The notes under the pieces: model-generated
What the model was told of the DNA's origin: nothing
The model's database searches: none
What the model saw: only the letters and a program-made list of their open reading frames with translations
Source of the DNA: a virus
Taxonomy: Duplodnaviria > Caudoviricetes
IMG/VR virus record: IMGVR_UViG_3300025137_000058
Coordinates: 1 to 52,643 of that record
Reading direction: 5' to 3' (one strand)
Length of the DNA stretch: 52,643 nucleotides
Shown here: one piece after another, positions 1,081-47,524 of the stretch
How the letters are laid out: each line of letters begins with the position of its first letter
Position numbering within the stretch: position 1 is the first letter of the stretch
Translations under genes and position numbers: made by a program

Positions 1081-1414
1081 AGAGTATGAAAATATAGATG
1101 AGAATTGCGAAGAGTGTATATTCGAACACGAAGAAGAAGAATTACAAGAAGCAGAGTATCAAGGTAAAAAAGTAACTCTTAATGACCCTATTAGAGGTGG
1201 TAGTAAGAAATTTTATGTGTATGTTCAAAATGAAAAAGGTAATATTATCAAAGTTTCATTTGGCGACACAACAGGTTTAAGTATTAAACGAGATGACCCG
1301 GCACGAAGAAGGTCTTTTAGAGCAAGACACAATTGTGATAATCCAGGTCCTAAAACAAAAGCACGATATTGGTCTTGTTACCAATGGAGAGCAAACGCAA
1401 AGGTGGATAACTAA
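1067..1414 (+). CDS. Conserved phage protein with capsid-targeting-like N-terminus
   Basis: Starts MKTFKEY. C-terminal basic domain KKFYVYV..VSFGD..RRRSFRARHNC..KARYWSC. Confidence 0.7.
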   Translation: MKTFKEYENIDENCEECIFEHEEEELQEAEYQGKKVTLNDPIRGGSKKFYVYVQNEKGNIIKVSFGDTTGLSIKRDDPARRRSFRARHNCDNPGPKTKARYWSCYQWRANAKVDN

Positions 1415-1415
1415 A

Positions 1416-4043
1416 ATGATTAGATATAGAAAATCAATGAGAGATGCTTTAGGTGAAGTTAGAGGTCTTGTAGAGGATGCTACAACATCATACCCTCCTA
1501 AAGAAATTAATAAAAAGAAACATGATGCTTACAAAGACCCTAAAAAAGGTGAAAAAGAAATTCAAGAAGAAGACCCATCAATTGATGACATTGCGAAAGG
1601 TTTGAAGTTAGATAAGAAACTTGTTAAGAAGATAATGGGTGAAGAAATAAATGATTTACAGGAAATACCTGCTAGTCTAATGCAAGACCTAAGAAAGACT
1701 TTTGAACCATTAAGAGGTAAAAAAATATCAGTTGATAATAGTAATAAATTATCGGCGATTATGAATAAGTTTACATCAAAAGCAGATTTAATTACTTTGT
1801 TTAAAGCAGATATTCCATTTATATCTTTATTAGCATCCACTAGATTAATTCAAAAATTTGGTATGAGTGGTGCCCAAATTAATAAACTAAGAGAAGAAGT
1901 TGAACTTGATGAGATGTTTGACTATGCAATCATAGATGGTGATAATAAAATCCTAGGATTGTATAAAGGTCAAGACGGAAAAAAACATGCACAGATGAAT
2001 TTAAAAGGTGCAGAAAGACAACTTGGTATTAAGAAACCTCTTAAAGTTAGACCAGTGAGTAAAAAGAAAGTTGGTGACACAGTCATAGGTATTGGAGAAG
2101 AAGTTGAACTAAAAGAATTTTCATCACAACAAATTAAACAAGCATATGGTATTGCAAATGACCCTAGATATAAACAAGGTAATATGTCAGGTGCCGTAAA
2201 TGCTATTGAAAAAATTGCAAAAGGATTATCTAAACATCCAGATGTGCAAAAAGTTTTAAAAAGAACACAAGAAGAAGTAGAACTTGATGAAACACTTTTA
2301 GAATTTAAAAAAGGTGATATAGTTATTCCTAATGTAGGTCCTCACAAAGGTGTTAAACATGAAATAATTCACGATTTCAAAGATGGCACATACAACATAC
2401 AACCTGATATAGCATTAGCAAGAAATATTAAATATAGATTAGGCGCCGCTAGAGCAAAAGCAAGTGAACTTGTTGGTGTTGATGAAGAAACTGTTCCTGC
2501 AAATGTAAAAAAGATTGCTAAAGAATTAGACAAAGCAGTTGCTATGCACAAAAGTCAAGCACAAAGATTGCGTAAAGCAGGTGTTAGTGAAGAAGATAAA
2601 CTTGATGAAATGGGTTCTATCAAACCAAGACACTATGATGTAGAAGTAACAATTAAAAATAGAAGAGATGCTAAAGCAGTTGATGAATACATATCTGATA
2701 ACATGAGTATGGGTATAGAAGATTACGATAATGATGGTATAATGACTGCTAGTGGTTACACAGAAGGTACAGTTAACTTTCATGGTGATGATGCAGGTCA
2801 TATCGGTGTTGAATTACAAAAAAAGTTTGGAAGTAAAATAAAAGTTGTTGGTGAACAAGTTGAGATTAAGGAAGAGGTTGCAGATATATTTGTACAAAAT
2901 AAAGTTGGTTCTGAGCATCAAGTTCAAATTGCATTAACAATAAAAGCACTTGCAAATAAATTAGGATTAAGAAATGGTTCAGTAGGACCTGTAGTTAGAG
3001 TAATGGGTCCGAAAAATGTTGTGAATCAATTTCTAGGTTCTGTTATTGGTAAATCAAGTATGGGTAATGCAACACAAAAAGGAACAATTCCTAAAGACTA
3101 TGACAAAAGTTTAAATAAACAACTAAGAGAAGAAACACTAGAACTTGGTGAAGGTACTATGAAGGGTGGACTGATAACTGATAGAGTAGATGACATACTT
3201 AAAATAGGTCCAAAATTTGTTGCTTTAATTAGTCGAAAACCAACAGTACAACAATTAGAAAGAATGTGTGTACAAGAATTGTTTGATGATTCATTACTAG
3301 ATGATTTCTATTACATTGACCCTAGTTCAAAAGGTATTGTAAAGAGTGGTAATCCTGAAGCAAAAAAGGCGTATGGTAAACATGCTAGAGTACTACACAG
3401 TGTAGACCCTAGAAGTGTTTTACAATACAATTTAGCAGGTAGAACATTTCAAGGTAGAAGTGATGGTTTAATGTTACACAGTTTAGGCGCCGCCATGTTA
3501 GCATTTCATCTTGCTGATTTAGGAATACCAGCAATAAAAATTAACCCAGATTTAGAATTGTTTGATAATCCTAAATATAAGGGAACACAAAAAATAAGTC
3601 CTGATGTTATACTAAAAAACTTTAGAGTATCAAAATCTGATGTTTTGCGTGTGATACAAATGCATATGAGAGATATGAGTGGACCAGAAATAAGTAAATT
3701 AGTTTCTATCTCACCAAAAAGTTTACAATATCAATTTAAAGAAAATTCACAACATGCAGGTGCTAGAGGATTAGTTGAAAGATTAACGGGTATGGATTTA
3801 ACTGAAGTAAATGCTGATGTAACAAAAAGTCTTACAAAGAAATCAAAAGCATCAGGTATTCCCTTAGGTATATTAAAACAAGTTTTCAAAAGAGGAATGG
3901 CGGCGTTTGGTAGTGGTAGTAGAACTAACATGTCCCAACACGGATGGTCACACGCAAGAGTAAATTCTTTCATAGCAAAGAAACCAGGCACTTGGGGTGG
4001 AGCAGATAAAGATTTAGCAAAACAGGCGAGGAGTTCAAAATGA
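1416..4043 (+). CDS. Large modular putative head-internal polyprotein
   Basis: ORF track 1293..4043; the start is more likely the ATG at 1416, right after the upstream stop. Repeated EEVEL(D/K)E linkers. C-terminal SGIPLGILKQVFKRGMAAF..WSHARVNSF module. Confidence 0.7.
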   Translation: MIRYRKSMRDALGEVRGLVEDATTSYPPKEINKKKHDAYKDPKKGEKEIQEEDPSIDDIAKGLKLDKKLVKKIMGEEINDLQEIPASLMQDLRKTFEPLRGKKISVDNSNKLSAIMNKFTSKADLITLFKADIPFISLLASTRLIQKFGMSGAQINKLREEVELDEMFDYAIIDGDNKILGLYKGQDGKKHAQMNLKGAERQLGIKKPLKVRPVSKKKVGDTVIGIGEEVELKEFSSQQIKQAYGIANDPRYKQGNMSGAVNAIEKIAKGLSKHPDVQKVLKRTQEEVELDETLLEFKKGDIVIPNVGPHKGVKHEIIHDFKDGTYNIQPDIALARNIKYRLGAARAKASELVGVDEETVPANVKKIAKELDKAVAMHKSQAQRLRKAGVSEEDKLDEMGSIKPRHYDVEVTIKNRRDAKAVDEYISDNMSMGIEDYDNDGIMTASGYTEGTVNFHGDDAGHIGVELQKKFGSKIKVVGEQVEIKEEVADIFVQNKVGSEHQVQIALTIKALANKLGLRNGSVGPVVRVMGPKNVVNQFLGSVIGKSSMGNATQKGTIPKDYDKSLNKQLREETLELGEGTMKGGLITDRVDDILKIGPKFVALISRKPTVQQLERMCVQELFDDSLLDDFYYIDPSSKGIVKSGNPEAKKAYGKHARVLHSVDPRSVLQYNLAGRTFQGRSDGLMLHSLGAAMLAFHLADLGIPAIKINPDLELFDNPKYKGTQKISPDVILKNFRVSKSDVLRVIQMHMRDMSGPEISKLVSISPKSLQYQFKENSQHAGARGLVERLTGMDLTEVNADVTKSLTKKSKASGIPLGILKQVFKRGMAAFGSGSRTNMSQHGWSHARVNSFIAKKPGTWGGADKDLAKQARSSK

Positions 4044-4855
4044 GTTATTTAGAAACAAAAACAGGTAGTCTTGAAGAGGCAATCAGAAAGCATGATGAAG
4101 ACTATCAAGCAATGTTTAAAAAAGAATTAGATAAATCAGGTAAGTCGATAGGTCAAATGACACCTGATGAAAAGAAAGCATTCTTTAATAAGTTAGATAA
4201 AATGCATACTGCAAAGAATGAAGCAAAGGTTGACGAGTTAACTAAAGCACAAAAGAAGTTACCACCTGGATTGCAAAAAGCAATCAAGAAAAAGGAAATG
4301 AAAGAAGAACAGATTGATGAGGTTAATTTAACCTTTATTAGAAAGTTTGCAGACGATATGAAGAAGGACAAACAGTTTAAACCATTCGCAGATAAGTTTA
4401 TGAAAATGGCAATGAAGGGTGGTAGTCCAAGAGATGCACTTGAAAAATCATTACCAGATTATATCTCTGGTAAAGACATAGAAAAATTAATTGATAAAAA
4501 TAGAATGAGTGCTATATTTGGTGAAGATGTGCGTGAGTCAAAACAAGGTAAAGTTGATGTATTGAAAACAAAACTTGCTAAAGAGAAAGACACAGACGCA
4601 TTGCAAAAACAAATAACACAGTTGACAGGTCAGTTAGCATTAGCAAAACAAAAATTAGAAAACGAAAAGCACGGAAAATTACAACCTGAACCTAATCCTG
4701 AAACAGGTGAAGTTCCGTTAACAGTTGGTATTGCATACAAACATTTAAGAGATAAGATGAAAAAAGAAGAAGAGAAAAAACCAATAAAGAAAACTATGGT
4801 AGGGTCAAAAGCAGATAAAGTTGATACGGAACCTGAGGTTGAATTCGACAGATAA
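4040..4855 (+). CDS. Charged modular hypothetical (putative internal protein)
   Basis: 271-aa ORF overlapping the previous stop; KVDEL and EEQIDE linkers. Confidence 0.6.
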   Translation: MSYLETKTGSLEEAIRKHDEDYQAMFKKELDKSGKSIGQMTPDEKKAFFNKLDKMHTAKNEAKVDELTKAQKKLPPGLQKAIKKKEMKEEQIDEVNLTFIRKFADDMKKDKQFKPFADKFMKMAMKGGSPRDALEKSLPDYISGKDIEKLIDKNRMSAIFGEDVRESKQGKVDVLKTKLAKEKDTDALQKQITQLTGQLALAKQKLENEKHGKLQPEPNPETGEVPLTVGIAYKHLRDKMKKEEEKKPIKKTMVGSKADKVDTEPEVEFDR

Positions 4856-5346
4856 TGGATTCATCTACAAGAATTTATTGTGATATGGATGGTGTGCTTT
4901 GCGATTTTGCGAGAAACATTAAAACAACAACGGGAATGACAATCGATAAGTGGATGCGAGTCGATAAAAACGAAAGATGGAAAAAAATAATAGAAAAGGG
5001 TACTTTTTGGTCAACAATGCCATGGTTAAATGATGGTAAAAATCTTTGGAGATTTATAGAAAAGCATGACCCATATATTTTATCCGCCGCATCTCAACAA
5101 GACCCTAATTGTAAACCTGGAAAAATGCAATGGATAGCAAGAAACTTAGGTATACCTAGAAGTAGAGTTCATCTAGTTCAAAGACATGAAAAACAGATGT
5201 TTGCAAAGACGGGTGGTCAACCTTGTATTTTAATAGATGACTATGGCAGAAATACAAAAGAATTTACAACACGAGGTGGTGTTGGTATCAGATTTCAAAA
5301 TGCTGGTCAAGTTATCAGAGAATTGAAAGGACTTGGTTTCAATTGA
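4855..5346 (+). CDS. HAD-family 5'(3')-deoxyribonucleotidase-like protein
   Basis: HAD motif I DMDGVL, ILSA, and LIDD motif. Confidence 0.85.
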   Translation: MDSSTRIYCDMDGVLCDFARNIKTTTGMTIDKWMRVDKNERWKKIIEKGTFWSTMPWLNDGKNLWRFIEKHDPYILSAASQQDPNCKPGKMQWIARNLGIPRSRVHLVQRHEKQMFAKTGGQPCILIDDYGRNTKEFTTRGGVGIRFQNAGQVIRELKGLGFN

Positions 5347-5347
5347 T

Positions 5348-5355
5348 TATAAATA
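5348..5355 (+). promoter_or_regulatory. T4-type late promoter
   Basis: Exact TATAAATA in an intergenic position, upstream of SD AAGGAG and pqqA. Confidence 0.75.
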
Positions 5356-5378
5356 CTTTTTTAATTAAGGAGAAATTT

Positions 5379-5453
5379 ATGTGGAAGAAACCAGAAATAA
5401 AAATGATAAGTGTAGGATTAGAAATTAATTGCTATGCTTGTGCAGAAATATAA
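5379..5453 (+). CDS. pqqA: PQQ precursor peptide (24 aa; absent from ORF track)
   Basis: Manual translation MWKKPEIKMISVGLEINCYACAEI*. Has the W-x-x-P N-terminus and the G-x-E-x-x-x-Y core; strong SD AAGGAG. Confidence 0.88.
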   Translation: MWKKPEIKMISVGLEINCYACAEI

Positions 5454-5498
5454 ACAATTAAATTAACAAAGTGAGTACCTAAAAAGGGAGAGAATATT

Positions 5499-5804
5499 AT
5501 GTCAAGTTGGTCAAATACAGATGCTCATGGTAGTGCGCCGTTATGGGCACTAGCAAGGGTAAATAAAGAACCTAAAGCGGCGAACATGGGCGCCGCCGCA
5601 TCAGGTAAACTATTTAATAACGCAACAGAAGATAATCTTATAGATGGAGTGACTATCGGTCTTTTTAATTTTAAAGACGGAGAAGAACAAAGTGGTAAGA
5701 TTGCTCATGTTGGTTGGAATTTAAAAACTACTGGAACAGGAGGTCGTGCTAGTAGAATACAATTCGAAACTTTAGTATCTTTGGCAAATAGTCAAGATGC
5801 ATAA
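5499..5804 (+). CDS. Hypothetical, probable virion protein
   Basis: SD GGGAGAG; IAHVGW..GTGGRASRIQFETLV motif seen in T4-like structural regions. Confidence 0.6.
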   Translation: MSSWSNTDAHGSAPLWALARVNKEPKAANMGAAASGKLFNNATEDNLIDGVTIGLFNFKDGEEQSGKIAHVGWNLKTTGTGGRASRIQFETLVSLANSQDA

Positions 5805-5815
5805 TTAACTTAACA

Positions 5816-5889
5816 AGGGACACTTTACGGTGTGGGGTGTCCCTACTAATTGATGTAAGTAAATACTTACAGTAGCATTCCCGAAAGGG
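5816..5889 (+). other. Candidate structured intergenic RNA (three hairpins)
   Basis: agggacactttac/gtggggtgtccct, tgtaagta/tacttaca and ccc-GAAA-ggg stems, directly before the SD. Confidence 0.5.
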
Positions 5890-5904
5890 TTTAAAGGAGA
5901 TAAA

Positions 5905-6366
5905 ATGGCAGATAAAAAAATTACAGCATTAACCGATTTAGGTAATGGTCTAGCATCAGTAGATTTGTTTCATGTAGTTGACGACCCTACAGGAACACCT
6001 ATCAATAAAAAAATTACAGCAGAAGATGTATTTAATAATATACCGACATGGTTAGGATTAAATTCTACTTCACAAGCAATTACTGGAGATGGTTCAACAT
6101 CAACAGCAATTAATATTACAACACCAGTTACAGAAGTTAACGCAACTTCCGCCGCCGCTCCTTGTACATTGGCAGATGGAGCAAACGGTCAAATAAAAAC
6201 TATTATAAATGTTTCTACAAGTGGTACAAACAATATTGTAATAACACCTAGTAATTTGAGAGGATATGCAACAATAACTCTTAATGCACCTGGTGAAACA
6301 GTGACTTGTATGTTTAAGAATAGTAATTGGAATGTAATCGCAGGTAATGGTTACGCATTAGCATAA
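5905..6366 (+). CDS. Probable virion structural (fibre-like) protein
   Basis: MADKKITALTDL N-terminus; T/S/N/G-rich beta-type composition. Confidence 0.65.
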   Translation: MADKKITALTDLGNGLASVDLFHVVDDPTGTPINKKITAEDVFNNIPTWLGLNSTSQAITGDGSTSTAINITTPVTEVNATSAAAPCTLADGANGQIKTIINVSTSGTNNIVITPSNLRGYATITLNAPGETVTCMFKNSNWNVIAGNGYALA

Positions 6367-6381
6367 TAAGGAAATTTTAGA

Positions 6382-6609
6382 ATGAGTATATCAAAAAAAC
6401 TTTTAGTGGTTGAAAAACAAAAATTAGAGCAAGACTTTAATGCTCTATCTGAAAAATTAAAACAAAGTGAACTATCTATGCAAGGTTTAAGAAATAATTT
6501 AAACGCAATACACGGTGCTATGCAACAAGTGGACAAGTTATTAGGTATGTTTACAGACGATAAAGATGAGAAGGAAAAATCAGATGGTAAAGTCGTTCAA
6601 AAAACATGA
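6382..6609 (+). CDS. Small coiled-coil hypothetical
   Basis: 75-aa ORF with SD AAGGA and a heptad pattern. Confidence 0.6.
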   Translation: MSISKKLLVVEKQKLEQDFNALSEKLKQSELSMQGLRNNLNAIHGAMQQVDKLLGMFTDDKDEKEKSDGKVVQKT

Positions 6610-6730
6610 TAAAGATAGAGAAGTAGAAGAATTTGAAGAAGATTTAACACAAGGAAAATCTTCTAAAAAAAACGAAGAGAAGAATAAAAACGAAGAAAAT
6701 AACGATAGAGGAAAAAATGAAAACATTTAA
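6584..6730 (+). CDS. Small charged protein with CTS-like start (absent from ORF track)
   Basis: Manual translation MVKSFKKHDKDREVEEFEEDLTQG..ENI* (48 aa); SD AAGGA; fills the gap between neighbours. Confidence 0.55.
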   Translation: MVKSFKKHDKDREVEEFEEDLTQGKSSKKNEEKNKNEENNDRGKNENI

Positions 6731-7145
6731 ACAACATGTGAAAGAAGACCATGGTAGTATGGGTGTCGGTACATCTGACCAAAATGCTATTGAAGATGGT
6801 TCTATAGGTGTGCATAATGTACATGACCCTGATGTTTTAAAAAGAGTTAACATATTTGTTAATTCTATGTCTATGAAAGAATATTTAAGTCCTGACCATG
6901 CAATAACTGAACTAAGAAATAAACTTATGAGAATAGGTTTAAATTTTGGTCCTGTTGGTTTTGATGAAAATAAAGGAGACCAAACAGTAAGAGTAAGTAG
7001 ATTTAAAACATTTGGTAAAGCAGATGACGGACAAGACATTGATAATGATGGTATCGAAGATGTGAAAGAAGGTGGTCTTAATCTAAGAATTAGACACGAA
7101 AAATCAAGTGAAGGAACATCAAAGGTATATTGCGAATTGATATAG
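6717..7145 (+). CDS. Conserved T4-like hypothetical with CTS-like start
   Basis: Starts MKTFKQHVKE. Confidence 0.7.
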   Translation: MKTFKQHVKEDHGSMGVGTSDQNAIEDGSIGVHNVHDPDVLKRVNIFVNSMSMKEYLSPDHAITELRNKLMRIGLNFGPVGFDENKGDQTVRVSRFKTFGKADDGQDIDNDGIEDVKEGGLNLRIRHEKSSEGTSKVYCELI

Positions 7146-7508
7146 ATGTTTCACACAATAACGAAAGAGAACTGGTTATTATTCGCACAAAAGCATTATG
7201 ATAACCCTACTTTAGAAAAAGAAGTAGAATTTTATGATGATTTAAAGAGATTTAAATATCTTAAAAGACTTTTTCGTAAGTATGATACTAATTCAAGATT
7301 AAAAGTTCGATTAGCATTGAATCATATTATTGTGTTACAAAACGTGTTTGGTGTTGAACCATGCGTAACATTATTACTATATAAGATAGATAATAAACAC
7401 TATGGTATTTTGAAAGCAATATTAAATTATTTACAGTATTTGTATCCAGATGAATTAAATTTTGTAAAAGAGGATAAAATAGTAAGGGAACAACTAGAGA
7501 GGTTATAA
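7146..7508 (+). CDS. Conserved T4-like hypothetical
   Basis: FAQKHYDNP..FYDDLKRFKYLKRL..RLALNHII..NVFG pattern. Confidence 0.75.
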   Translation: MFHTITKENWLLFAQKHYDNPTLEKEVEFYDDLKRFKYLKRLFRKYDTNSRLKVRLALNHIIVLQNVFGVEPCVTLLLYKIDNKHYGILKAILNYLQYLYPDELNFVKEDKIVREQLERL

Positions 7509-23228: not shown

Positions 23229-24447
23229 ATTTCTAAATCATTCTAGTTTTATAGTAGGTAATATTTTAGTGGATCCATGGTTTAACGAAAGTGTTTTTTT
23301 AAATAGTTGGAACTTACTAAAAGAATTTGATTATGATATTAATAAATTAAGATACGAATACATTTACCTATCACACGAACACCCAGACCATTTTCACATA
23401 CCAACTTTAAAAAAGATTGCTAATCCTGAAAGTAAGACAGTTATATTTCACAAAACCACAGACGGTAAAGTTGTAGACTTTGTAAAAAATATGGGTTTTA
23501 AAATTATAGAATGTGAAAATGACATGTTTTATGACTTGAACTTTGGTAAAATAAAAGTACAATCAAATGGGTTTGACAGTTTCTTCATCTATAAAACAAG
23601 CACAGGTCAAACTATTATTAATATGAATGATTATCAAGTAAAAGATGCTGATGAACTTGAAAAATTAAATGAACCAGATGTGGACTATTTATTCTCACAA
23701 TTTACATATGCTAATTGGGCAGGTAATAAAGATGATGATATGCTACCCAAAAAAGCACAGAGAATTATAAATGATAGGTTGAGTATACAGTTTAAAGTAT
23801 TTAAACCAAAAACATGGATACCTTCAGCATCATACATCTACTTTTCACATGAAGAAAATTTTTATATGAATAAACATACTCCTAGTTTTAGTAGTATCAA
23901 AGCATTTGCAGAATCAAAAAATATTAATTGTGTTTTTCCTACACCTGATATGATACACAATAATAGAATGGGTGATAATGCAATACAATATTGGACAACA
24001 ATGAAAGGATTAATAAATCCTATACATAAAAATAATGTGCAACCTTTAGAAGAAGTAAAAAAATCATTCTTAGTAATGTGTGAGGAAATACATAATAAAA
24101 ATAATATGTCTTTGTTTAACGAAGAAGAAACTTACATTAGTGTACCAGACTGGAGCAATGTCATAAAATATGATATTAAAAATACAACATTTGAAATAGT
24201 ATCACAACTAGAAAACGATATAACTATGTCGAGTGAGTGCTTACATTTTTTAATTAAAAATAAATGGGGTAGAGGTACTGTATTAATAAGTGGTAGGTGT
24301 CAGATAAATTACGAAAAAGCAAATAACTTTTTTAATCAGACAAACTTATGGTATTATAATAACATTGGTAAACATTTAGGTACAAACCTAACAATGAGTG
24401 AAATTATTAATCAAGATAACTTTTATGAGGAATTAATTAATGTCTGA
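23221..24447 (+). CDS. Metallo-beta-lactamase-fold protein (CMAH/UlaG-like)
   Basis: NHSS; VDPW; SHEHPDH; DS; NMND; PSASY. Confidence 0.75.
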   Translation: MFRFLNHSSFIVGNILVDPWFNESVFLNSWNLLKEFDYDINKLRYEYIYLSHEHPDHFHIPTLKKIANPESKTVIFHKTTDGKVVDFVKNMGFKIIECENDMFYDLNFGKIKVQSNGFDSFFIYKTSTGQTIINMNDYQVKDADELEKLNEPDVDYLFSQFTYANWAGNKDDDMLPKKAQRIINDRLSIQFKVFKPKTWIPSASYIYFSHEENFYMNKHTPSFSSIKAFAESKNINCVFPTPDMIHNNRMGDNAIQYWTTMKGLINPIHKNNVQPLEEVKKSFLVMCEEIHNKNNMSLFNEEETYISVPDWSNVIKYDIKNTTFEIVSQLENDITMSSECLHFLIKNKWGRGTVLISGRCQINYEKANNFFNQTNLWYYNNIGKHLGTNLTMSEIINQDNFYEELINV

Positions 24448-24748
24448 CTTAAAACAATCAGTAGTTGAAGCATTGAGATGTGTGTACGACCCTGAGATGC
24501 CATCAGTAAACATATTAGACTTAGGTTTGATATATGAAATTGAGTGCAAACAAGATGGTGAAGTTTATATAGAACACACACTGACCAGCATGAACTGTCC
24601 GTTTGCAGATGAGATATGCAAAAGCATAGAAGATGCAGTCAAAGGTGTAGTAGGAGTATCCAAGGTCAATCGTAAGTTAGTGTTCACACCACCATTTGAT
24701 ATTAACATGATACCTGAAGAAACAAAAATTATATTAGGATTGATGTAA
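24440..24748 (+). CDS. DUF59/SufT-like Fe-S cluster assembly protein
   Basis: VYDPE..NILDLGLIY; TLTSMNCP; LVFTPPF. Confidence 0.88.
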   Translation: MSDLKQSVVEALRCVYDPEMPSVNILDLGLIYEIECKQDGEVYIEHTLTSMNCPFADEICKSIEDAVKGVVGVSKVNRKLVFTPPFDINMIPEETKIILGLM

Positions 24749-25635: not shown

Positions 25636-26055
25636 ATGATACGAGATGTTAAGACGGGTGAGAACTGTAATATAGTAGAACCTGTAAATCTATATGATTG
25701 TACAATAGGCGACCATTGTATGGTAGGTCCATTTGTAGAGATACAAGGTAATGTTACTATTGGTAATAAAGTAAGAATTCAATCGCATAGTTTCATATGC
25801 GAGAACACACAGATATTAGATAGTACCTTTATAGGTCACGGTGTTATGTTTACAAATGATAAGTTTACAGACGGTAAATTAACTAAAGATTTTCTACCAA
25901 CAAAGGTAGGTTATAGATGTAGAATAGGTTCAAATGTAACTATATTACCCGTTTCTATTTGTGATGATGTTGTGATTGGTGCAGGTTCAGTTGTTACAAA
26001 AGATATCACTAGAAGAGGAGTTTATGCAGGTAATCCAGCAGTGAGAATTAAGTAA
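25636..26055 (+). CDS. Hexapeptide-repeat N-acetyltransferase (WbpD-like)
   Basis: LbH repeats; GHGVMFTND; GAGSVVTKD; GNPA. Confidence 0.88.
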   Translation: MIRDVKTGENCNIVEPVNLYDCTIGDHCMVGPFVEIQGNVTIGNKVRIQSHSFICENTQILDSTFIGHGVMFTNDKFTDGKLTKDFLPTKVGYRCRIGSNVTILPVSICDDVVIGAGSVVTKDITRRGVYAGNPAVRIK

Positions 26056-27005
26056 TGATTGCACTTGTTGGTTATGGTTATTGGGGAAAGAATTTAGCAA
26101 GAGTATTTAAAGATAAATTAAAATACATAATTGATAAAGACGACCATAATTTAAATAAAGCAAAGTATAGTTATGGTAATAATGTTAACTATGATAGAAG
26201 TTTAACGAATGTTTTAAAAACTGATAAAAGTATTAAAGCAATACTAATAGCAACAAAACCCGAATCACATTTAGACATTGCAAAGTTGTGTTTAAGATAT
26301 GGTAAACATATATGGATTGAAAAACCTGTTTGTACAACATACAAACAAGCATTAGAACTACTAAAATACCATGAGAAGACAAATAATAGATTAAGAGTGA
26401 TGGTTGACCATACATTTTTATTTCATCCTGCTATTAATAAATTAGTATCAATTAATATAGGTGAACCTTTATATTACGATAGTCATAGAATTAGTTTAGG
26501 ATTATTTCAAAAAGATGTTGATGTTGTAAAAGATTTAGCAATACATGACTTAGCAATAATTAAACATTTGTATCCCATGATGCAATTAAAGAAAAAAACT
26601 ATAGTTAAACATAATCATGTGAATAATATTCATAATCAAGCAATATTATGTTTAGAATTTGAACAAGGTGGGTTGACAAAACGAAAGTTTACTGCTACCA
26701 TTAATTGCAATTGGGTAAGTCCTGTAAAGAAACGAGAAATAATCTTGACAGGAACAAAAAAATCTGTTATATATGATGACATAGACGTGAATAAAATTAA
26801 AATTTATAATACAGGAAAGATTGGCGAAGATTATAATATAAATCAATTAGGTGATATGAAAAGTCCTAAACTAGATACGACTGAAGCATTAGTCAATGGT
26901 AGAGCAAACTTTTTAGGTGCAATAGATAATGAGTGCAAACCTATGATGTCAGACTTAAAATTTTCTGTAGATTTGATGAGATGGATAGATGATACCATAT
27001 TATGA
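26055..27005 (+). CDS. Gfo/Idh/MocA oxidoreductase (WbpB-like)
   Basis: GYGYWG; IEKP; DLAIHD. Confidence 0.88.
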   Translation: MIALVGYGYWGKNLARVFKDKLKYIIDKDDHNLNKAKYSYGNNVNYDRSLTNVLKTDKSIKAILIATKPESHLDIAKLCLRYGKHIWIEKPVCTTYKQALELLKYHEKTNNRLRVMVDHTFLFHPAINKLVSINIGEPLYYDSHRISLGLFQKDVDVVKDLAIHDLAIIKHLYPMMQLKKKTIVKHNHVNNIHNQAILCLEFEQGGLTKRKFTATINCNWVSPVKKREIILTGTKKSVIYDDIDVNKIKIYNTGKIGEDYNINQLGDMKSPKLDTTEALVNGRANFLGAIDNECKPMMSDLKFSVDLMRWIDDTIL

Positions 27006-28083
27006 CATGAATGAAATTCATAAACCTCTGAAAGACGAGTTTATGAGTCAAGTAAAAGAATTACTGGATACAAACAATTTTGTATTTGGAACAGATAAGT
27101 TCGAAGAAGAATTTGCAGAGTATACTGGTGCAAAATATTGTGTGGGTGTAAATAGTGGTACATCAGCATTAATACTTGCCCAATTTGCATGTGGTGTTCG
27201 ACCTGGTGACTTAGTAAAAACAGTATCTCATACATTTACAGCAACAGTCACAAGTATAAAACATTTAGGTGCTTCACACGAATTTGTAGATATAGATGAA
27301 AAAACTTATTGCATGGATCCAGAAAAATTAACACAAGATTTTAGAACAAAAATTATACTACCTGTGCATATGTATGGTAATGCTTGTGATATGCCTGGAA
27401 TAATCTCTAAGAAATCAACATCTACAATTATAGAAGATTGCTCACAAGCACACGGAACTAGAATAAATGGTAAACACGTTGGTACTTTTGGTAAAGCAGG
27501 TACTTTTAGTTTTTATCCAGGAAAAGGTATAGGTGCATTTGGTGATGCTGGTTGCATTATAACAGATGATGAGGGTTTAGCAATCGAATTAAAAGAACAA
27601 CGTAGTTGGAAAGAAAATGATGTAGGTTTTAATTTTAGAATGGCAAACATTAATGCTAAGTTTATAAGTTTAAAACTAAAACACTATCCTGAAGTTTTAA
27701 AAGCAAAGAAAGAAATAGCACAATATTATGATAAACATTTATCAGATTGTCATGTTAATGATGGTGTAGAGCATAGTTATCATATCTATCCTTTATTACA
27801 TAAAGATAGAGAGAACTTGATTAGGAGATGTAATACTGAATTACAATTAAAAAAACATTACGACAAACCTGTGCATCATAATCCAGCATTTCATTTCACA
27901 TCAGATACATGCACATATTGTAGTGCTAAAGAAATGAAAGATTTTAATTTACCTGTAACAGATAAAGTATCTGCATCACAGGTGAGTGTACCTATTTATC
28001 CAGGTCTAAATAAAGAAGAAGTGATTGATATTTTACAAAAACATTGGAGTAATGGTAATGGTTCATCTAATTCCGTTTTATAA
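26989..28083 (+). CDS. DegT/DnrJ/EryC1/StrS aminotransferase (WbpE-like)
   Basis: NSGTSAL; PVHMYG; EDCSQAHG; SFYPGK..GDAG. Confidence 0.9.
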   Translation: MIPYYDMNEIHKPLKDEFMSQVKELLDTNNFVFGTDKFEEEFAEYTGAKYCVGVNSGTSALILAQFACGVRPGDLVKTVSHTFTATVTSIKHLGASHEFVDIDEKTYCMDPEKLTQDFRTKIILPVHMYGNACDMPGIISKKSTSTIIEDCSQAHGTRINGKHVGTFGKAGTFSFYPGKGIGAFGDAGCIITDDEGLAIELKEQRSWKENDVGFNFRMANINAKFISLKLKHYPEVLKAKKEIAQYYDKHLSDCHVNDGVEHSYHIYPLLHKDRENLIRRCNTELQLKKHYDKPVHHNPAFHFTSDTCTYCSAKEMKDFNLPVTDKVSASQVSVPIYPGLNKEEVIDILQKHWSNGNGSSNSVL

Positions 28084-33844: not shown

Positions 33845-34460
33845 ATTTATTATGTTAATAAGTTTAATTGTACTAGCAGGTTGTAGCAGTAAAAATTACT
33901 CTATCAAAAGTGAGAGTGGTAAAGTAGTTAACACTGTACCTAGTTGGTTTATGGCAGATATTAAAGAGTCTAAAGCATGTGACTTATCTATGTGGACTAA
34001 GAAAGATAATAGCAAACAATGTATCTATGGTATGGGTACTGCTGTATCACCAAGTTTAGACCTTGCGATAGAGAAAGCAAAGTTAAAAGCAAAAGCAGAT
34101 TTGGCAGACTTAGTTAAAGGTCAAATGAATAAGCAATCAAAAATATTTGCAAAGGAAGTTGGTGCTAGTGTAAAGAATAAGAAAGTAGCAAATGATTTTG
34201 AAACTGTAACAGTCAACGAGATTAAAGCAACTGTAGTAAAAGGTTATGAAATCTTTGAACAAGATGTTACACTGACTGTTAACGGTAACTACAGAGCATG
34301 GGTAGGTCTAAGATTACCTCTTGGTGAGTTTAATAAGTTGTACGAATACAATGCAGAGGAAATATTAAATGCTTACAAAGTACAAGATAAATCTAAAGAA
34401 GCATACTCTAGTCTTATGAAAAAAGACGAAGGTTCAAATGAAAATAGAAATATTCAGTAA
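33837..34460 (+). CDS. LPP20-like lipoprotein
   Basis: Lipobox LAGC; VPSWF; GTAVS..LAIEKA. Confidence 0.7.
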   Translation: MNKFIMLISLIVLAGCSSKNYSIKSESGKVVNTVPSWFMADIKESKACDLSMWTKKDNSKQCIYGMGTAVSPSLDLAIEKAKLKAKADLADLVKGQMNKQSKIFAKEVGASVKNKKVANDFETVTVNEIKATVVKGYEIFEQDVTLTVNGNYRAWVGLRLPLGEFNKLYEYNAEEILNAYKVQDKSKEAYSSLMKKDEGSNENRNIQ

Positions 34461-34710
34461 ACCTAACTGCATCTATTGTGAAAAGTCCAAGACCTTGTTA
34501 AGAGGTCTTGGATTTAAGTACATTGAGAAGAGTATTAATGACTATGAAACAAAACAGCAATTTCTAGAAGCGATTGGTAAGAGAGTTAAAACTGTACCTC
34601 AAATTAAAATAAATAGTAAACTAGTTGGTGGTTATAATCAATTAGTAGAATACTTTGCTGATAAGGGTAAAGTAAATTTTAAAGGAGAGATTATAAATGA
34701 GCAAAGATAA
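34438..34710 (+). CDS. Glutaredoxin
   Basis: CIYC; TVPQI; VGGY. Confidence 0.9.
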   Translation: MKIEIFSKPNCIYCEKSKTLLRGLGFKYIEKSINDYETKQQFLEAIGKRVKTVPQIKINSKLVGGYNQLVEYFADKGKVNFKGEIINEQR

Positions 34711-35324: not shown

Positions 35325-35332
35325 TATAAATA
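35325..35332 (+). promoter_or_regulatory. T4-type late promoter
   Basis: Intergenic TATAAATA. Confidence 0.7.
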
Positions 35333-35929: not shown

Positions 35930-36056
35930 ATTAACACGATATAAACTAGAAGTTCCAGGTGGTTCATATGAACACACAAACCTTACAGTACTATATTTAA
36001 CTGTATTTTTACATAGATTTACACACTTGATAAAAGACGGTAAATGGATGGATTGA
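35922..36056 (+). CDS. Small hypothetical (absent from ORF track)
   Basis: Manual translation MSKLTRYKLEVPGGSY..HRFTHLIKDGKWMD* (44 aa); coupled to both neighbours. Confidence 0.5.
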   Translation: MSKLTRYKLEVPGGSYEHTNLTVLYLTVFLHRFTHLIKDGKWMD

Positions 36057-36331
36057 TGCGACCAGATAAAGATATAATAAGAGATATCAATGATATCATT
36101 AAAAGACAGATACAACCATCAGTAGAAATGCATGGTGGTGTCGTAACTTTAGAGAAATATGAAGATGGTGTAGCAACTATGTTTATGAGTGGTGCTTGTA
36201 GTGGTTGTGCATCATCTGATTATACTCTCCAACAAGGTATTTTACAGTTATTACAACATTATATACCTGAAATCAAAAACATACAAAAAATAGAAGACCC
36301 TAATTCGACTGTAGACCCATATTTTACTTGA
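36056..36331 (+). CDS. NifU-C/NfuA-like Fe-S carrier
   Basis: IQPSVEMHGG; MSGACSGCASS..TLQQGI..IPEI. Confidence 0.9.
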   Translation: MRPDKDIIRDINDIIKRQIQPSVEMHGGVVTLEKYEDGVATMFMSGACSGCASSDYTLQQGILQLLQHYIPEIKNIQKIEDPNSTVDPYFT

Positions 36332-40230: not shown

Positions 40231-40457
40231 GAAATGATATGCTTGATGCAGTAAGAATGTCTTGTGAAGGACAATTACAAGCACATAAAATAAACGTAGA
40301 AATTTATTTAAATAAATCAATAGGTATTGGTGAACATAGTGATATCATACAAACTGTTATAAAAGAATTAGAGCAAGTGGCGAAGTATGAAGAACTATTG
40401 AATACTTTAGAAAATCATTTTAAAAAAGAAGAAGTTTACATAGATGAAATTAAGTAA
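40215..40457 (+). CDS. Conserved small phage protein
   Basis: NVEIYL..GIGEHSDI motif. Confidence 0.65.
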   Translation: MSKSMRNDMLDAVRMSCEGQLQAHKINVEIYLNKSIGIGEHSDIIQTVIKELEQVAKYEELLNTLENHFKKEEVYIDEIK

Positions 40458-41496
40458 GATACCTGGTTTAGGTAGATTTGGCATATACGTTGATGATTTA
40501 AAGATTGAAGATTTGAATAATGATAGATGGTTACTATTAGGTGAAGAACACCTAAAAGGTTTAGTAACCATTATTCGTGATGTTAAATTCAAAGATGCAG
40601 GTGAGTATAAAAAGTGGATGAAGAAATGGGGTAATCCACTTTATTTACCCATGTTAGCATTAAAGAAAAAATACAACATCAAAAAGTGGACTGCTTATGA
40701 TTTCTTTAAAATGGATAAAGAAGATAAAAAGTATATAGAAGATGTTAAAAGAATGGTCGTATCAGCAGATGGTAGATTTAATAGTGTGTTGAGAGTTACA
40801 GAGAACAGAACATCTGATGATAAACCTATGGGTCTATTTGGTAGAGGTGATTTAGAATGGCACTGTAATGATGGTGGACTGCTATATTCTATTCCTGGTA
40901 TATCATTATGGGGTCAAAGAAATATGACCAATAGTAGCACAGGTTTTATGACAACAGTTGATTGGTATGAGGAACAACCTGAGAGTGTTAGAAAAGAATT
41001 AGATGATGCAATTGTGATTCACAAATATTCATCACAACAAGTTAATCCAGATGGTGAAAAATATGATGATGAGGTTGTAAGCAGAAACGTATTCTGTGAT
41101 GGTAATATAGCATCAAAATTACATAATGATGAAAACCTACCAGAGATACCTTTGGTTAGAAAATCTTTATACGGATATCGTGGTATACATTTAAGCACAT
41201 CATGTTATCAAATCGTAGGTTTATCAGTAAAAGAATCACAAAAGTTTTTTGACCATTTACGAAAGTCACTGTTTCAGGAGAAATATACTTACAGACATAA
41301 ATATAAGAAAGACAATGATTTATTGATTTTTGATAATACCATTACGTTACACAATAGAGAAGGTAAAACTAAGGATAGATTAGCATTTAGAATACCTAAC
41401 GATTATTCTAAATTAAGACCTGAGTATAATCCTTACATTCAAGAACCATATAAATCAGATTACGCAATAATAAAGGAAAATTATGCCAACATATGA
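40444..41496 (+). CDS. TauD/TfdA-like dioxygenase
   Basis: LEWHCND; TGF; DLLIFDNTITLHNR; R near C-terminus. Confidence 0.75.
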   Translation: MKLSKIPGLGRFGIYVDDLKIEDLNNDRWLLLGEEHLKGLVTIIRDVKFKDAGEYKKWMKKWGNPLYLPMLALKKKYNIKKWTAYDFFKMDKEDKKYIEDVKRMVVSADGRFNSVLRVTENRTSDDKPMGLFGRGDLEWHCNDGGLLYSIPGISLWGQRNMTNSSTGFMTTVDWYEEQPESVRKELDDAIVIHKYSSQQVNPDGEKYDDEVVSRNVFCDGNIASKLHNDENLPEIPLVRKSLYGYRGIHLSTSCYQIVGLSVKESQKFFDHLRKSLFQEKYTYRHKYKKDNDLLIFDNTITLHNREGKTKDRLAFRIPNDYSKLRPEYNPYIQEPYKSDYAIIKENYANI

Positions 41497-42183: not shown

Positions 42184-42679
42184 AAACTTTACATTAAGAG
42201 AGATGACAAGGTCACAAACTGCTACTAGAAAAGGACTAGATAATAAACCTTCTGGAACCCACGAAGCAAATTTAGTATTACTTTGTCAAAACATATTACA
42301 ACCATTAAGAGATTATTATGGTAGACCTTTAAGAGTAACATCTGGTTATAGAAGTCCAGAATTATGTGTTGCTATCGGGTCATCAATTAATTCACAACAC
42401 GCAAAAGGTCAGGCGGCGGATTTTGAGATACCAGGTGTATCAAATAAAGATTTAGCAGAACACATCAGAGATAATTTAAGTTTTGACCAATTGATATTAG
42501 AGTTTCATAGTCCAGTAGACCCTATGAGTGGTTGGGTACATTGTTCTTTTAATAACAAAGTTGAAAATAGAAAAGAATTTTTAAGAGCATATAAAGATAA
42601 TGGTAAAACAAAATATGAAATGTATAGTAATGAAGTATTTGCAACTGAAAGTGATATAGTGAGTGGTTCAAAAAAATAA
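42170..42679 (+). CDS. Peptidase M15A (possible endolysin)
   Basis: LSKNFTL; SGYRS; SQHAKGQAAD; DQLILE; WVH. Confidence 0.88.
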   Translation: MELSKNFTLREMTRSQTATRKGLDNKPSGTHEANLVLLCQNILQPLRDYYGRPLRVTSGYRSPELCVAIGSSINSQHAKGQAADFEIPGVSNKDLAEHIRDNLSFDQLILEFHSPVDPMSGWVHCSFNNKVENRKEFLRAYKDNGKTKYEMYSNEVFATESDIVSGSKK

Positions 42680-43049
42680 AACTGATGACCATTTTATTGA
42701 AGAAGATGATTATGTATATGCAGGCAATCATTTAATAGTAGACATATATGGTTACGATAAAGAGTATAGAGATTTTAATCATCTATTAGCAAAAGCATCA
42801 CATCTTGCAGGTGCTAAATTGCTCTACTCATATACACATGATTTTGACAATGGTGGTATTACAGGTGTCGCCATATTAGCAGAATCACATATATCATTTC
42901 ACACTTGGGCAGAGAGAGATTATATTGCATTTGATGTCTTTATGTGTGGTGACACACAACCATACAAAGCAATTAATTTTATCAAAAAAGAATTGAAAGC
43001 AGAAGACGTGAAAATTAAAATAATTAAAAGAGGTAAAATTGCAAAGTAG
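42663..43049 (+). CDS. speD: Pyruvoyl-dependent AdoMet decarboxylase-family proenzyme
   Basis: GNHLIVD; GITGVAILAESHISFHTW; DVFMCG. Confidence 0.85.
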   Translation: MVQKNKTDDHFIEEDDYVYAGNHLIVDIYGYDKEYRDFNHLLAKASHLAGAKLLYSYTHDFDNGGITGVAILAESHISFHTWAERDYIAFDVFMCGDTQPYKAINFIKKELKAEDVKIKIIKRGKIAK

Positions 43050-43407
43050 TTGGGGTTTCCATTTGATATTAGATTGTAAAGGTAGTAAAATGTCTAAAGA
43101 GTTAGTCAAAGATGCTAAATTTATAAAGGAGTTTACAAAGATTTTAGTAGATGGTATTGAGATGAAAGCATATGGTGAACCTATTATAGAACACTTTGCA
43201 ACGCACGAAGAAAATGCATCAGGTTATAGTTTGGTGCAATTAATAGAAACATCAGCAATCACAGGTCACTTTTGTGATATCAATGGTGATTTTTATTTAG
43301 ATATTTTTAGTTGCAAGAGTTTCAGCATTGACATTGCAAAAGAAATAGTGTATAGTTACTTTAAACCTAAATTAATAAGAGAAACATTTTTAACTAGACA
43401 GGCATAA
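43039..43407 (+). CDS. Second, divergent AdoMetDC-family protein
   Basis: WGFHLILDC; GYSLVQLIETSAITGHF; YLDIFSCK; TTG start after SD GAGG. Confidence 0.75.
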   Translation: MQSSWGFHLILDCKGSKMSKELVKDAKFIKEFTKILVDGIEMKAYGEPIIEHFATHEENASGYSLVQLIETSAITGHFCDINGDFYLDIFSCKSFSIDIAKEIVYSYFKPKLIRETFLTRQA

Positions 43408-47138: not shown

Positions 47139-47315
47139 ATGACAAAAGATAGTTTTGGAAATTTCTCTAATCATATCATTAAGATTGATTGGGCAAAAAT
47201 AGAATGCTCAGGACAAGATAATAGTCACCCGAAGGTTTACTATCATCTTAAAGTAGGCGAAACAAAACAATGTGCATATTGCAACTTAACCTGGAAGAGA
47301 ATAAAATTATTATGA
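47139..47315 (+). CDS. zf-CHCC zinc-finger protein (absent from ORF track)
   Basis: Manual translation ..IECSGQDNSHPKVYYHL..KQCAYC.. (58 aa); C-x6-HP-x-VY..CxYC pattern. Confidence 0.8.
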   Translation: MTKDSFGNFSNHIIKIDWAKIECSGQDNSHPKVYYHLKVGETKQCAYCNLTWKRIKLL

Positions 47316-47524
47316 ATAGTGTTACATTTTATAGTGAAGTAGAAAAGATTAAAAGACAGAAACGAGATATGACATATATGGACGCAGTTGTTTTTTATTG
47401 TGAAGAAAATGATATAGAGATAGAAACTGTAGGTAAATTTATATCAAAAGTTTTAAAAGAAAAGATAGAATCAGAAGCAAGAGATTTAAACTTCTTACCA
47501 AAAGTAGGAAAATTACCTATATGA
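47312..47524 (+). CDS. gp33: Late-transcription coactivator
   Basis: YMDAVV.YCEEN.IEIE..LKEKIE.EA..LNFL; ATG overlaps the zf-CHCC stop. Confidence 0.85.
   Translation: MNSVTFYSEVEKIKRQKRDMTYMDAVVFYCEENDIEIETVGKFISKVLKEKIESEARDLNFLPKVGKLPI

Follow-up and report, generated by a model that had tools for sequence, protein, structure and literature searches.

A stand-alone pqqA gene of marine alphaproteobacterial type in a T4-like marine phage genome

Why would a phage carry a 24-codon gene for the peptide precursor of PQQ, and how would such a gene serve it? The question is raised by a small open reading frame in an IMG/VR virus record that was analyzed over its entire length of 52.6 kb (hereafter, the window), with an estimated completeness of 37% and a G+C content of 31%. 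According to two published accounts (PMC7678222 and PMC9851590), the radical-SAM enzyme PqqE receives PqqA from PqqD and links a Glu of the peptide to a Tyr, after which PqqB and PqqC finish the cofactor—with one PqqA peptide spent per PQQ molecule. A preliminary description of this DNA had proposed a 24-residue pqqA product preceded by a strong Shine-Dalgarno (SD) sequence, an exact TATAAATA box 23 nt upstream of the start codon and an E-x-x-x-Y pair within the peptide; all of these elements read as claimed. The features on which the argument rests are as follows.

4855..5346, + strand: 5'-deoxynucleotidase gene (phrog_2643, E 9e-25; PF06941 under its cut-off), the upstream edge of the insertion site
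5348..5355, + strand: TATAAATA box, matching the T4-type late-promoter consensus, 23 nt ahead of the pqqA ATG
5367..5372, + strand: Shine-Dalgarno sequence AAGGAG, 6 nt ahead of the pqqA ATG
5379..5453, + strand: pqqA, 24 codons plus stop (ATG at 5379, stop at 5451-5453), with the product MWKKPEIKMISVGLEINCYACAEI
5421-5423 and 5433-5435, + strand: codons for Glu15 and Tyr19, the E-x-x-x-Y pair of the pqqA peptide, which would become the PQQ skeleton
5471..5479 (GTGAGTACC), then 5486-5495 (GGGAGAGAAT), + strand: conserved leader ahead of the 101-aa gene, marking the insertion's downstream edge
5499..5804, + strand: 101-aa gene, related to genes in 21 viral loci; neither Pfam nor PHROG gives a match
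47270..47524, + strand: gp33-like late-transcription coactivator gene (PF16805, 82.5 bits, E 1.9e-23)

The identity of the peptide was examined with two family models. The PqqA equivalog model TIGR02107 matched the 24-mer over profile positions 1-21 of 21 with 29.2 bits (E 5.9e-7), above the curated NCBI cut-off of 20 bits, and a PqqA model match was thus found as the preliminary description had anticipated; the Pfam model of PqqA (PF08042) scored 20.5 bits, narrowly below its gathering score of 21.1. A six-frame search across the whole 52.6-kb record returned the ORF at 5379-5453 as the sole PqqA match. A longer, TTG-initiated reading of 36 residues was rejected; this extended form bears a sub-threshold resemblance to the sactipeptide precursor model NF045558 (12.2 bits, cut-off 42), and the ATG start is preferred because every relative begins at the MW of the ATG form. 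The peptide of the window is unusual at position 9, where it has Met (ATG, 5403-5405) while 78 of the 79 distinct viral peptides, and likewise the bacterial copies listed, have Glu. Met9 is common only to the window and contig L014/L025, and two base changes are required to reach it from GAG. The substitution could weaken binding of the peptide to its chaperone. The Met9 codon is also an in-frame internal ATG, initiation at which would yield a leaderless 16-mer.

To place this copy among its viral counterparts, IMG/VR was scanned with three DNA patterns, directed at the N-terminus (4 matches, 3 of them real), the core (at least 120 matches) and the leader (at least 120 matches). The one spurious N-terminal match, L026, was a chance match within a larger gene. 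All of the core-pattern matches listed, at least 120, were PqqA-like small ORFs. The leader pattern is the more telling of these scans for the reactive residues, as it specifies nothing past Val12-Gly13 and leaves Glu15 and Tyr19 unspecified: each of the 120 matches listed ends in VGLEINCY[AMVS]CAE[ILV] (core LEINCY.CAE), with Glu15 and Tyr19 constant in 120 out of 120. Across the 67 distinct DNA sequences of this set, codons 14-19 and 21-23 each occur in two to five synonymous forms with zero amino-acid change. When the 79 distinct viral peptides are pooled, differences in the leader occur at positions 3, 4, 6, 7, 8, 10 and 11, and Trp2, Pro5 and the stretch from Val12 to Tyr19 are fixed—a constancy that is due in part to the patterns used for searching; for the core, the unbiased set is the leader-only one. 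The preliminary description had looked to syntenic copies with dN/dS<1 in related phages; viral copies occur in both syntenic and non-syntenic settings, and comparison of the window with the L023 copy of a PolA-type phage gave a pN of 0.039 and a pS of 0.63.

The peptide is also widespread. At least 138 distinct viral neighborhoods of 275 nt contain it, along with 8 more that are cut by contig ends, and the flanking genes come in more than 50 combinations, including the gap between the large terminase and portal genes and a site beside a late-transcription (late-promoter) regulator. Among the carriers is G003, a phage of PolA type with no relation to T4. Searches of GenBank phages with the peptide (tblastn) and with positions 5340-5500 (blastn) gave only short spurious matches; the alphaproteobacterial type of pqqA was therefore not found in that collection. 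By these sequence measures, the ORF at 5379-5453 is a genuine gene and an intact copy of pqqA under strong selection.

The genome that carries this gene is a bona fide T4-like marine phage genome. With two exceptions, the 84 ORFs called in the window lie on the + strand, and Pfam matches among 77 ORFs include gp32, the gp33-like coactivator, both ribonucleotide reductase subunits, ThyX and a gp19-like tail tube. When positions 4000-7500 were compared with GenBank phages by blastn, only Pelagibacter phage HTVC008M and four Melnitz OM43 phages matched, and this similarity is weak (76-77% identity across 4% of the query). DNA sequencing runs contain 99% of the window. One element of the preliminary description found no support in this analysis, namely the placement of pqqA among virion-type genes: its neighbors are the 5'-deoxynucleotidase gene upstream and, downstream, genes for which no Pfam or PHROG family was matched, and the gp19-type tail tube gene—the only virion-like match in the window—lies 46 kb away.

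Pfam matches further show that host-like helper genes are plentiful in the window. They include an Fe-S assembly protein (24440-24748), a NifU-like domain (36044-36331), a glutaredoxin (34438-34710), a TauD-family dioxygenase (40444-41496), two adjacent S-adenosylmethionine decarboxylase genes (42663-43407) and a sugar-modification cluster (25636-28083) with a hexapeptide transferase, a GFO/IDH/MocA oxidoreductase and a DegT aminotransferase. An ORF of 916 residues at 1293-4043 has a C-terminal DUF5824 segment as its sole family match.

How the gene came to lie at this position can be read from syntenic relatives, which were sought via the 101-aa gene and comprise 21 viral loci. The 5'-deoxynucleotidase gene is syntenic in 20 of them. 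In five loci (L002, L003, L004, L005 and L014), the nucleotidase and 101-aa genes flank pqqA; the remaining 16 have no pqqA there. Within the latter group, 15 have TATAAATA directly ahead of the leader of the 101-aa gene, 20-30 nt before TGAGTAC. This TGAGTAC core precedes the 101-aa gene in 21 of 21 loci, pqqA or not, and is followed in order by a short A-rich spacer, GGGAGAGAAT or a close variant of it, and the ATG, with L016-L018 being the most divergent. Since the same leader (5471-5495) follows pqqA in the window, pqqA and its SD sequence would sit between a late promoter and a late gene. As judged from these comparisons, pqqA is an insert of about 100 nt at one exact spot, present or absent among close relatives. 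No PqqA match was found elsewhere on the records of the 16 relatives that lack the gene at this site, records that are 5-76% complete. In L003 (2380-2441), two tandem TATAAATA boxes stand ahead of pqqA, one on each side of the old junction; ancestral sequence surrounds the first, and the second has the surroundings seen with pqqA, as though the promoter had come with the insert or been duplicated by it.

The box ahead of pqqA calls for a cautious reading. There are 7 copies of TATAAATA in the window, all on the coding strand, against 13.4 +/- 3.6 in shuffled sequences; at least 7 copies occurred in 99 of 100 shuffles, such that the box is rarer in the window than expected rather than enriched, and its count therefore proves nothing by itself. 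Position is more informative: three of the seven boxes (5348, 35325 and 49008) lie 23-53 nt before AAGGAG and an ATG, and the box at 35325, before a DUF6433 gene, shows a layout nearly identical to that of the pqqA site (box, about 23 nt, AAGGAG, ATG). Among the 116 other viral copies of pqqA, an SD-like site is located within 20 nt of the start in 98, and TATAAATA is found within 100 nt of the gene in only 1. Given that the box is unenriched in the window and present in 1 of the 116 other copies, we infer that late-promoter control of the window's pqqA would be specific to this phage group. As regards the transcription machinery, the gp33-like coactivator is present, and no gp55-type sigma factor appeared among the Pfam matches of the 77 ORFs in this record, which holds about 37% of the genome.

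Downstream of the box, the + strand shows nothing resembling a terminator either around pqqA or between pqqA and the 101-aa gene, and the RNA spanning 5356-5510 folds no better than its shuffles (z = 0.12). Contigs from metatranscriptome libraries of two studies match the locus with 0 mismatches at 5374-5731 and 5394-5539, bridging pqqA and the 101-aa gene. Such contigs show neither start nor strand nor timing, and DNA may occur in these libraries; they are compatible with, but no proof of, a transcript in which pqqA and the 101-aa gene are probably co-transcribed. The lack of RNA-library contigs over 5263-5364 would fit a transcript start past the box, yet a coverage gap of this kind is no evidence.

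The preliminary description had also reported that no pqqB, pqqD or pqqE is visible beside this pqqA, and this observation extends from the window (about 37% of the genome) to the other viral records searched. No PQQ-related family occurs among the Pfam matches of the 77 ORFs in the window. PqqE was found in none of 10 pqqA-bearing viral records, two of which are 97% and 100% complete by CheckV and belong to other phage types than the window; nor was a PQQ-dependent alcohol dehydrogenase (TIGR03075) found in the same ten. PqqD and PqqB were each absent from 4 of 4 viral records, with bacterial positive controls matching at 74 and 366 bits, respectively; the corresponding search for PqqC in 5 viral records also returned nothing, but it is uninformative because its control matched nowhere. 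In the viral records searched, then, pqqA stands alone. No linkage to pqqB-E is seen in the window; among bacterial members of the PqqA family, unlinked copies are usual (PMC4109929).

Next, we turn to the bacterial source of the peptide. In contigs of bacteria and archaea represented by one genome per species, the core pattern occurs at 95 places, 91 of which are labelled Alphaproteobacteria, Rhodospirillaceae, Rhodospirillales, Pelagibacterales, MarineAlpha9 or TMED; the remaining four comprise one Virgifigura deserti and three with other labels. Seven loci were tested for sharing of flanks, and two of the three loci with other labels, both in metagenome-assembled genomes (MAGs), L210 (labelled Anaerolineales) and L193 (labelled Acidobacteriota), match viral loci in their flanks and not just in pqqA: L210 resembles L063 over most of its length, and L193 resembles L013 and L016-L018. 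In both cases, a phage contig was probably assigned to a bacterial MAG in error.

Like the phage, 39 of the bacterial loci have a G+C content of 35% or less, and 21 of these have an ORF of PqqB size beginning no more than 120 nt downstream. In all three low-GC loci scanned, the core VGLEINCYACAE lies directly ahead of PqqB (367-384 bits; cut-off 245 bits) and then PqqC (329-341 bits; cut-off 240 bits), and in one such genome pqqB, pqqD and pqqE stand in one row. Five low-GC genomes of 1.1-1.9 Mb were taken as candidate hosts: PqqE is present in all five, and a PQQ dehydrogenase of the methanol/ethanol family scores above the cut-off in four. When G008 and 30 relatives were searched, 19 of these 31 genomes gave PqqA matches. 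A second, orphan pqqA also occurs in low-GC marine Alphaproteobacteria (L155, L160, L164, L174, L175, L179, L185 and L230). The place of this copy is conserved: it comes after a gene for a LysR-family regulator and is oriented convergently with EmrB/EmrA-type efflux genes.

Residues 1-7 (MWKKPEI) are identical in the window and in the nearest operon copy, MWKKPEIREVAVGLEINCYACAEL, of four single-cell genomes; 70 of the 79 distinct viral peptides have their nearest bacterial neighbors only among low-GC genomes, and 3 are identical to bacterial copies over all 24 residues. The G+C content of the phage, 0.31, falls within the 0.28-0.33 of the candidate hosts. The preliminary description had argued that the gene points to a PQQ-producing host, and this view is upheld, with the peptide being of the type that belongs to pqqABCDE operons of low-GC marine Alphaproteobacteria and of no classical methylotroph. 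Based on peptide type and G+C content, the hosts are likely small, low-GC marine Alphaproteobacteria and not OM43-type methylotrophs.

Taken together, these observations lead us to consider it rather likely that the window carries a functional, stand-alone phage pqqA, derived from the PQQ operon lineage of low-GC marine Alphaproteobacteria, that resupplies precursor to the PQQ enzymes of the host. A helper gene feeding the host PQQ pathway had been proposed from the outset, and this proposal now draws support from the identity of the peptide, the selection acting on it, its insertion site, its stand-alone state and the presence of the pathway in candidate hosts. For the steps that follow—translation, conversion to PQQ, timing and phage benefit—we infer a plausible course. 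The source of the gene would be the PQQ operon lineage found in small, low-GC marine Alphaproteobacteria. In the phage, the gene would be transcribed late, probably with the 101-aa gene, and translated from its own strong SD sequence. The 24-mer would then be bound by host PqqD, host PqqE would cross-link Glu15 and Tyr19, and host PqqB and PqqC, together with a peptidase, would complete PQQ. Each PQQ uses up one PqqA, but the enzymes can act again, and a phage that silences host gene expression would therefore need to replace the peptide only. Ongoing PQQ synthesis would in turn keep energy-yielding PQQ-dependent alcohol dehydrogenases supplied. As a cofactor, PQQ is not consumed in catalysis, and extra PQQ would therefore pay only if apo-enzyme or PQQ turnover is limiting. 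Two observations on the precursor are recorded in PMC9851590: in a PQQ overproducer, expression of the pqqA copies exceeds that of all other pqq genes, and a cell-free extract, as cited there, converted added PqqA into PQQ.

Several other explanations for the gene have to be weighed against this reading. The preliminary description had offered a decoy as an alternative, in which the phage peptide occupies host PqqD and PqqE without yielding PQQ and so stops host PQQ synthesis. A PqqA-type leader, as retained here, is what an inhibitor of this sort would keep, and Met9 in the window shows that leader variants occur; but a decoy should have lost the reactive residues or diverged in its core, and instead Glu15 and Tyr19 are constant in 120 of the 120 copies listed, the core is identical to that of operon-linked bacterial PqqA, and the three distinct viral peptides noted above match bacterial copies at every residue. 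The decoy is accordingly disfavored, and we regard it as very unlikely because the peptide retains its reactive residues and its core in full. About equally improbable is a use outside PQQ altogether, either as the precursor of a different radical-SAM-modified peptide or as a small regulatory protein; the two Cys in the core and the faint NF045558 resemblance of the 36-residue form lend it some color, yet the identical core is that of the first gene in canonical pqqA-B-C-D-E operons, and there is no other modifying enzyme nearby.

Strong purifying selection over many phage lineages and contexts, along with an own SD sequence kept in 98 of 116 copies, speaks against the notion that pqqA is a neutral passenger—a piece of host DNA captured recently and serving no function in its carrier, as the very short insert and its presence in just 5 of 21 syntenic relatives might imply—and we give this explanation hardly any credence. 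A larger phage PQQ module, in which the unseen 63% of the genome encodes a quinoprotein dehydrogenase or more pqq genes that pqqA would serve, is unlikely in our estimation. The Lake Baikal viral population VP_266 does pair PqqA with a methanol dehydrogenase (PMC7678222), and the window is only 37% complete; on the other side stand the 10 viral records without a PQQ-dependent dehydrogenase or PqqE, two of them 97-100% complete, albeit from other phage types. Resupply of the peptide precursor to host enzymes thus remains our preferred explanation.

If so, phages can carry the single consumable part of a cofactor pathway, a 24-residue peptide that gene callers usually skip. Phage-borne pqqA itself was already reported in 2020 from Lake Baikal (PMC7678222); what appears to be new here is the marine alphaproteobacterial type, of which no description in phages was found in the literature searched. 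Likewise, that search returned no literature on AEGEAN-169 with PQQ. The present analysis would extend phage-borne pqqA from phages of methylotrophs to phages of small-genome marine Alphaproteobacteria, bacteria equipped with full pqqABCDE operons as well as PQQ-dependent alcohol dehydrogenases. The peptide type would also provide a cheap clue to the hosts of uncultured phages—alphaproteobacterial in the window, Methylophilaceae in Melnitz and none in HTVC008M—and what the gene is worth to the phage could be gauged from a natural experiment, its presence or absence at one exact site.

More tentatively, stand-alone pqqA could be a common helper, repeatedly and independently acquired by phages of several unrelated lineages whose hosts are abundant, streamlined marine Alphaproteobacteria; we see this as possible, though the odds are against it. 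Were it true, the supply of PqqA peptide would be the step in PQQ synthesis that is the first to fail upon phage takeover, PQQ-dependent alcohol oxidation would be a significant source of energy for virus production in the open ocean, and the variable leader (residues 3-11) would track host PqqD and could mark phage host range.

Several known systems help to put the gene in perspective. One is that of the Lake Baikal phages (Coutinho et al. 2020, Microbiome 8:163; PMC7678222), for which viral PqqA with predicted Methylophilaceae hosts is reported. As in the window, a PqqA gene lies on a viral contig without pqqB-E and is read as an auxiliary gene for PQQ-dependent alcohol oxidation by the host. 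Unlike the window, the Baikal phage is of freshwater origin, has a betaproteobacterial methylotroph as its predicted host and encodes a methanol dehydrogenase, whereas the phage examined here is marine, has a peptide of alphaproteobacterial type and belongs to a set of viral records with a dehydrogenase in 0 of 10 (the window being 37% complete). Bacteria themselves often have 3-12 copies of pqqA per single pqqBCDE set, Methylophilaceae being one example (PMC4109929). The likeness to the window lies in extra copies of the consumable precursor only, unlinked to the enzymes; the Methylophilaceae copies differ in being chromosomal and of another sequence type, while the extra copy in the window is virus-borne.

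The pqqA of low-GC Alphaproteobacteria shares with the phage gene its length of 24 residues and an identical core VGLEINCYACAE. Those bacterial copies lie before pqqB-pqqC or after a LysR gene, in contrast to the phage copy with its phage neighbors and TATAAATA box, and the window's peptide differs from the low-GC operon copies at 5 residues, including Met9. A looser parallel, without homology, may be drawn with cyanophage psbA, which encodes a protein subunit that gets damaged and replaced. By analogy, the phage would in both cases resupply one fast-turnover part of an energy system of the host and rely on the host for the stable parts, with the difference that psbA replaces a damaged subunit and PqqA is a substrate that is chemically consumed.

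Finally, the Methylophilales phage Melnitz (MZ577097.1) is, like the phage of the window, a T4-like marine myovirus with pqqA. Its 24-codon gene (L373, 76140-76196), preceded by AAGGAGG, scores 31.6 bits against TIGR02107, above the cut-off. Melnitz has no pqqA at the site used by the phage of the window, and the Pelagibacter (SAR11) phage HTVC008M has no PqqA match. Unlike the peptide of the window, that of Melnitz, MKWTKPVAQEMRFGFEVTMYIMTR, is of Methylophilaceae type, with another core and at another genomic site—differences which imply that the two phages would have acquired pqqA independently, each in a form matched to its host.
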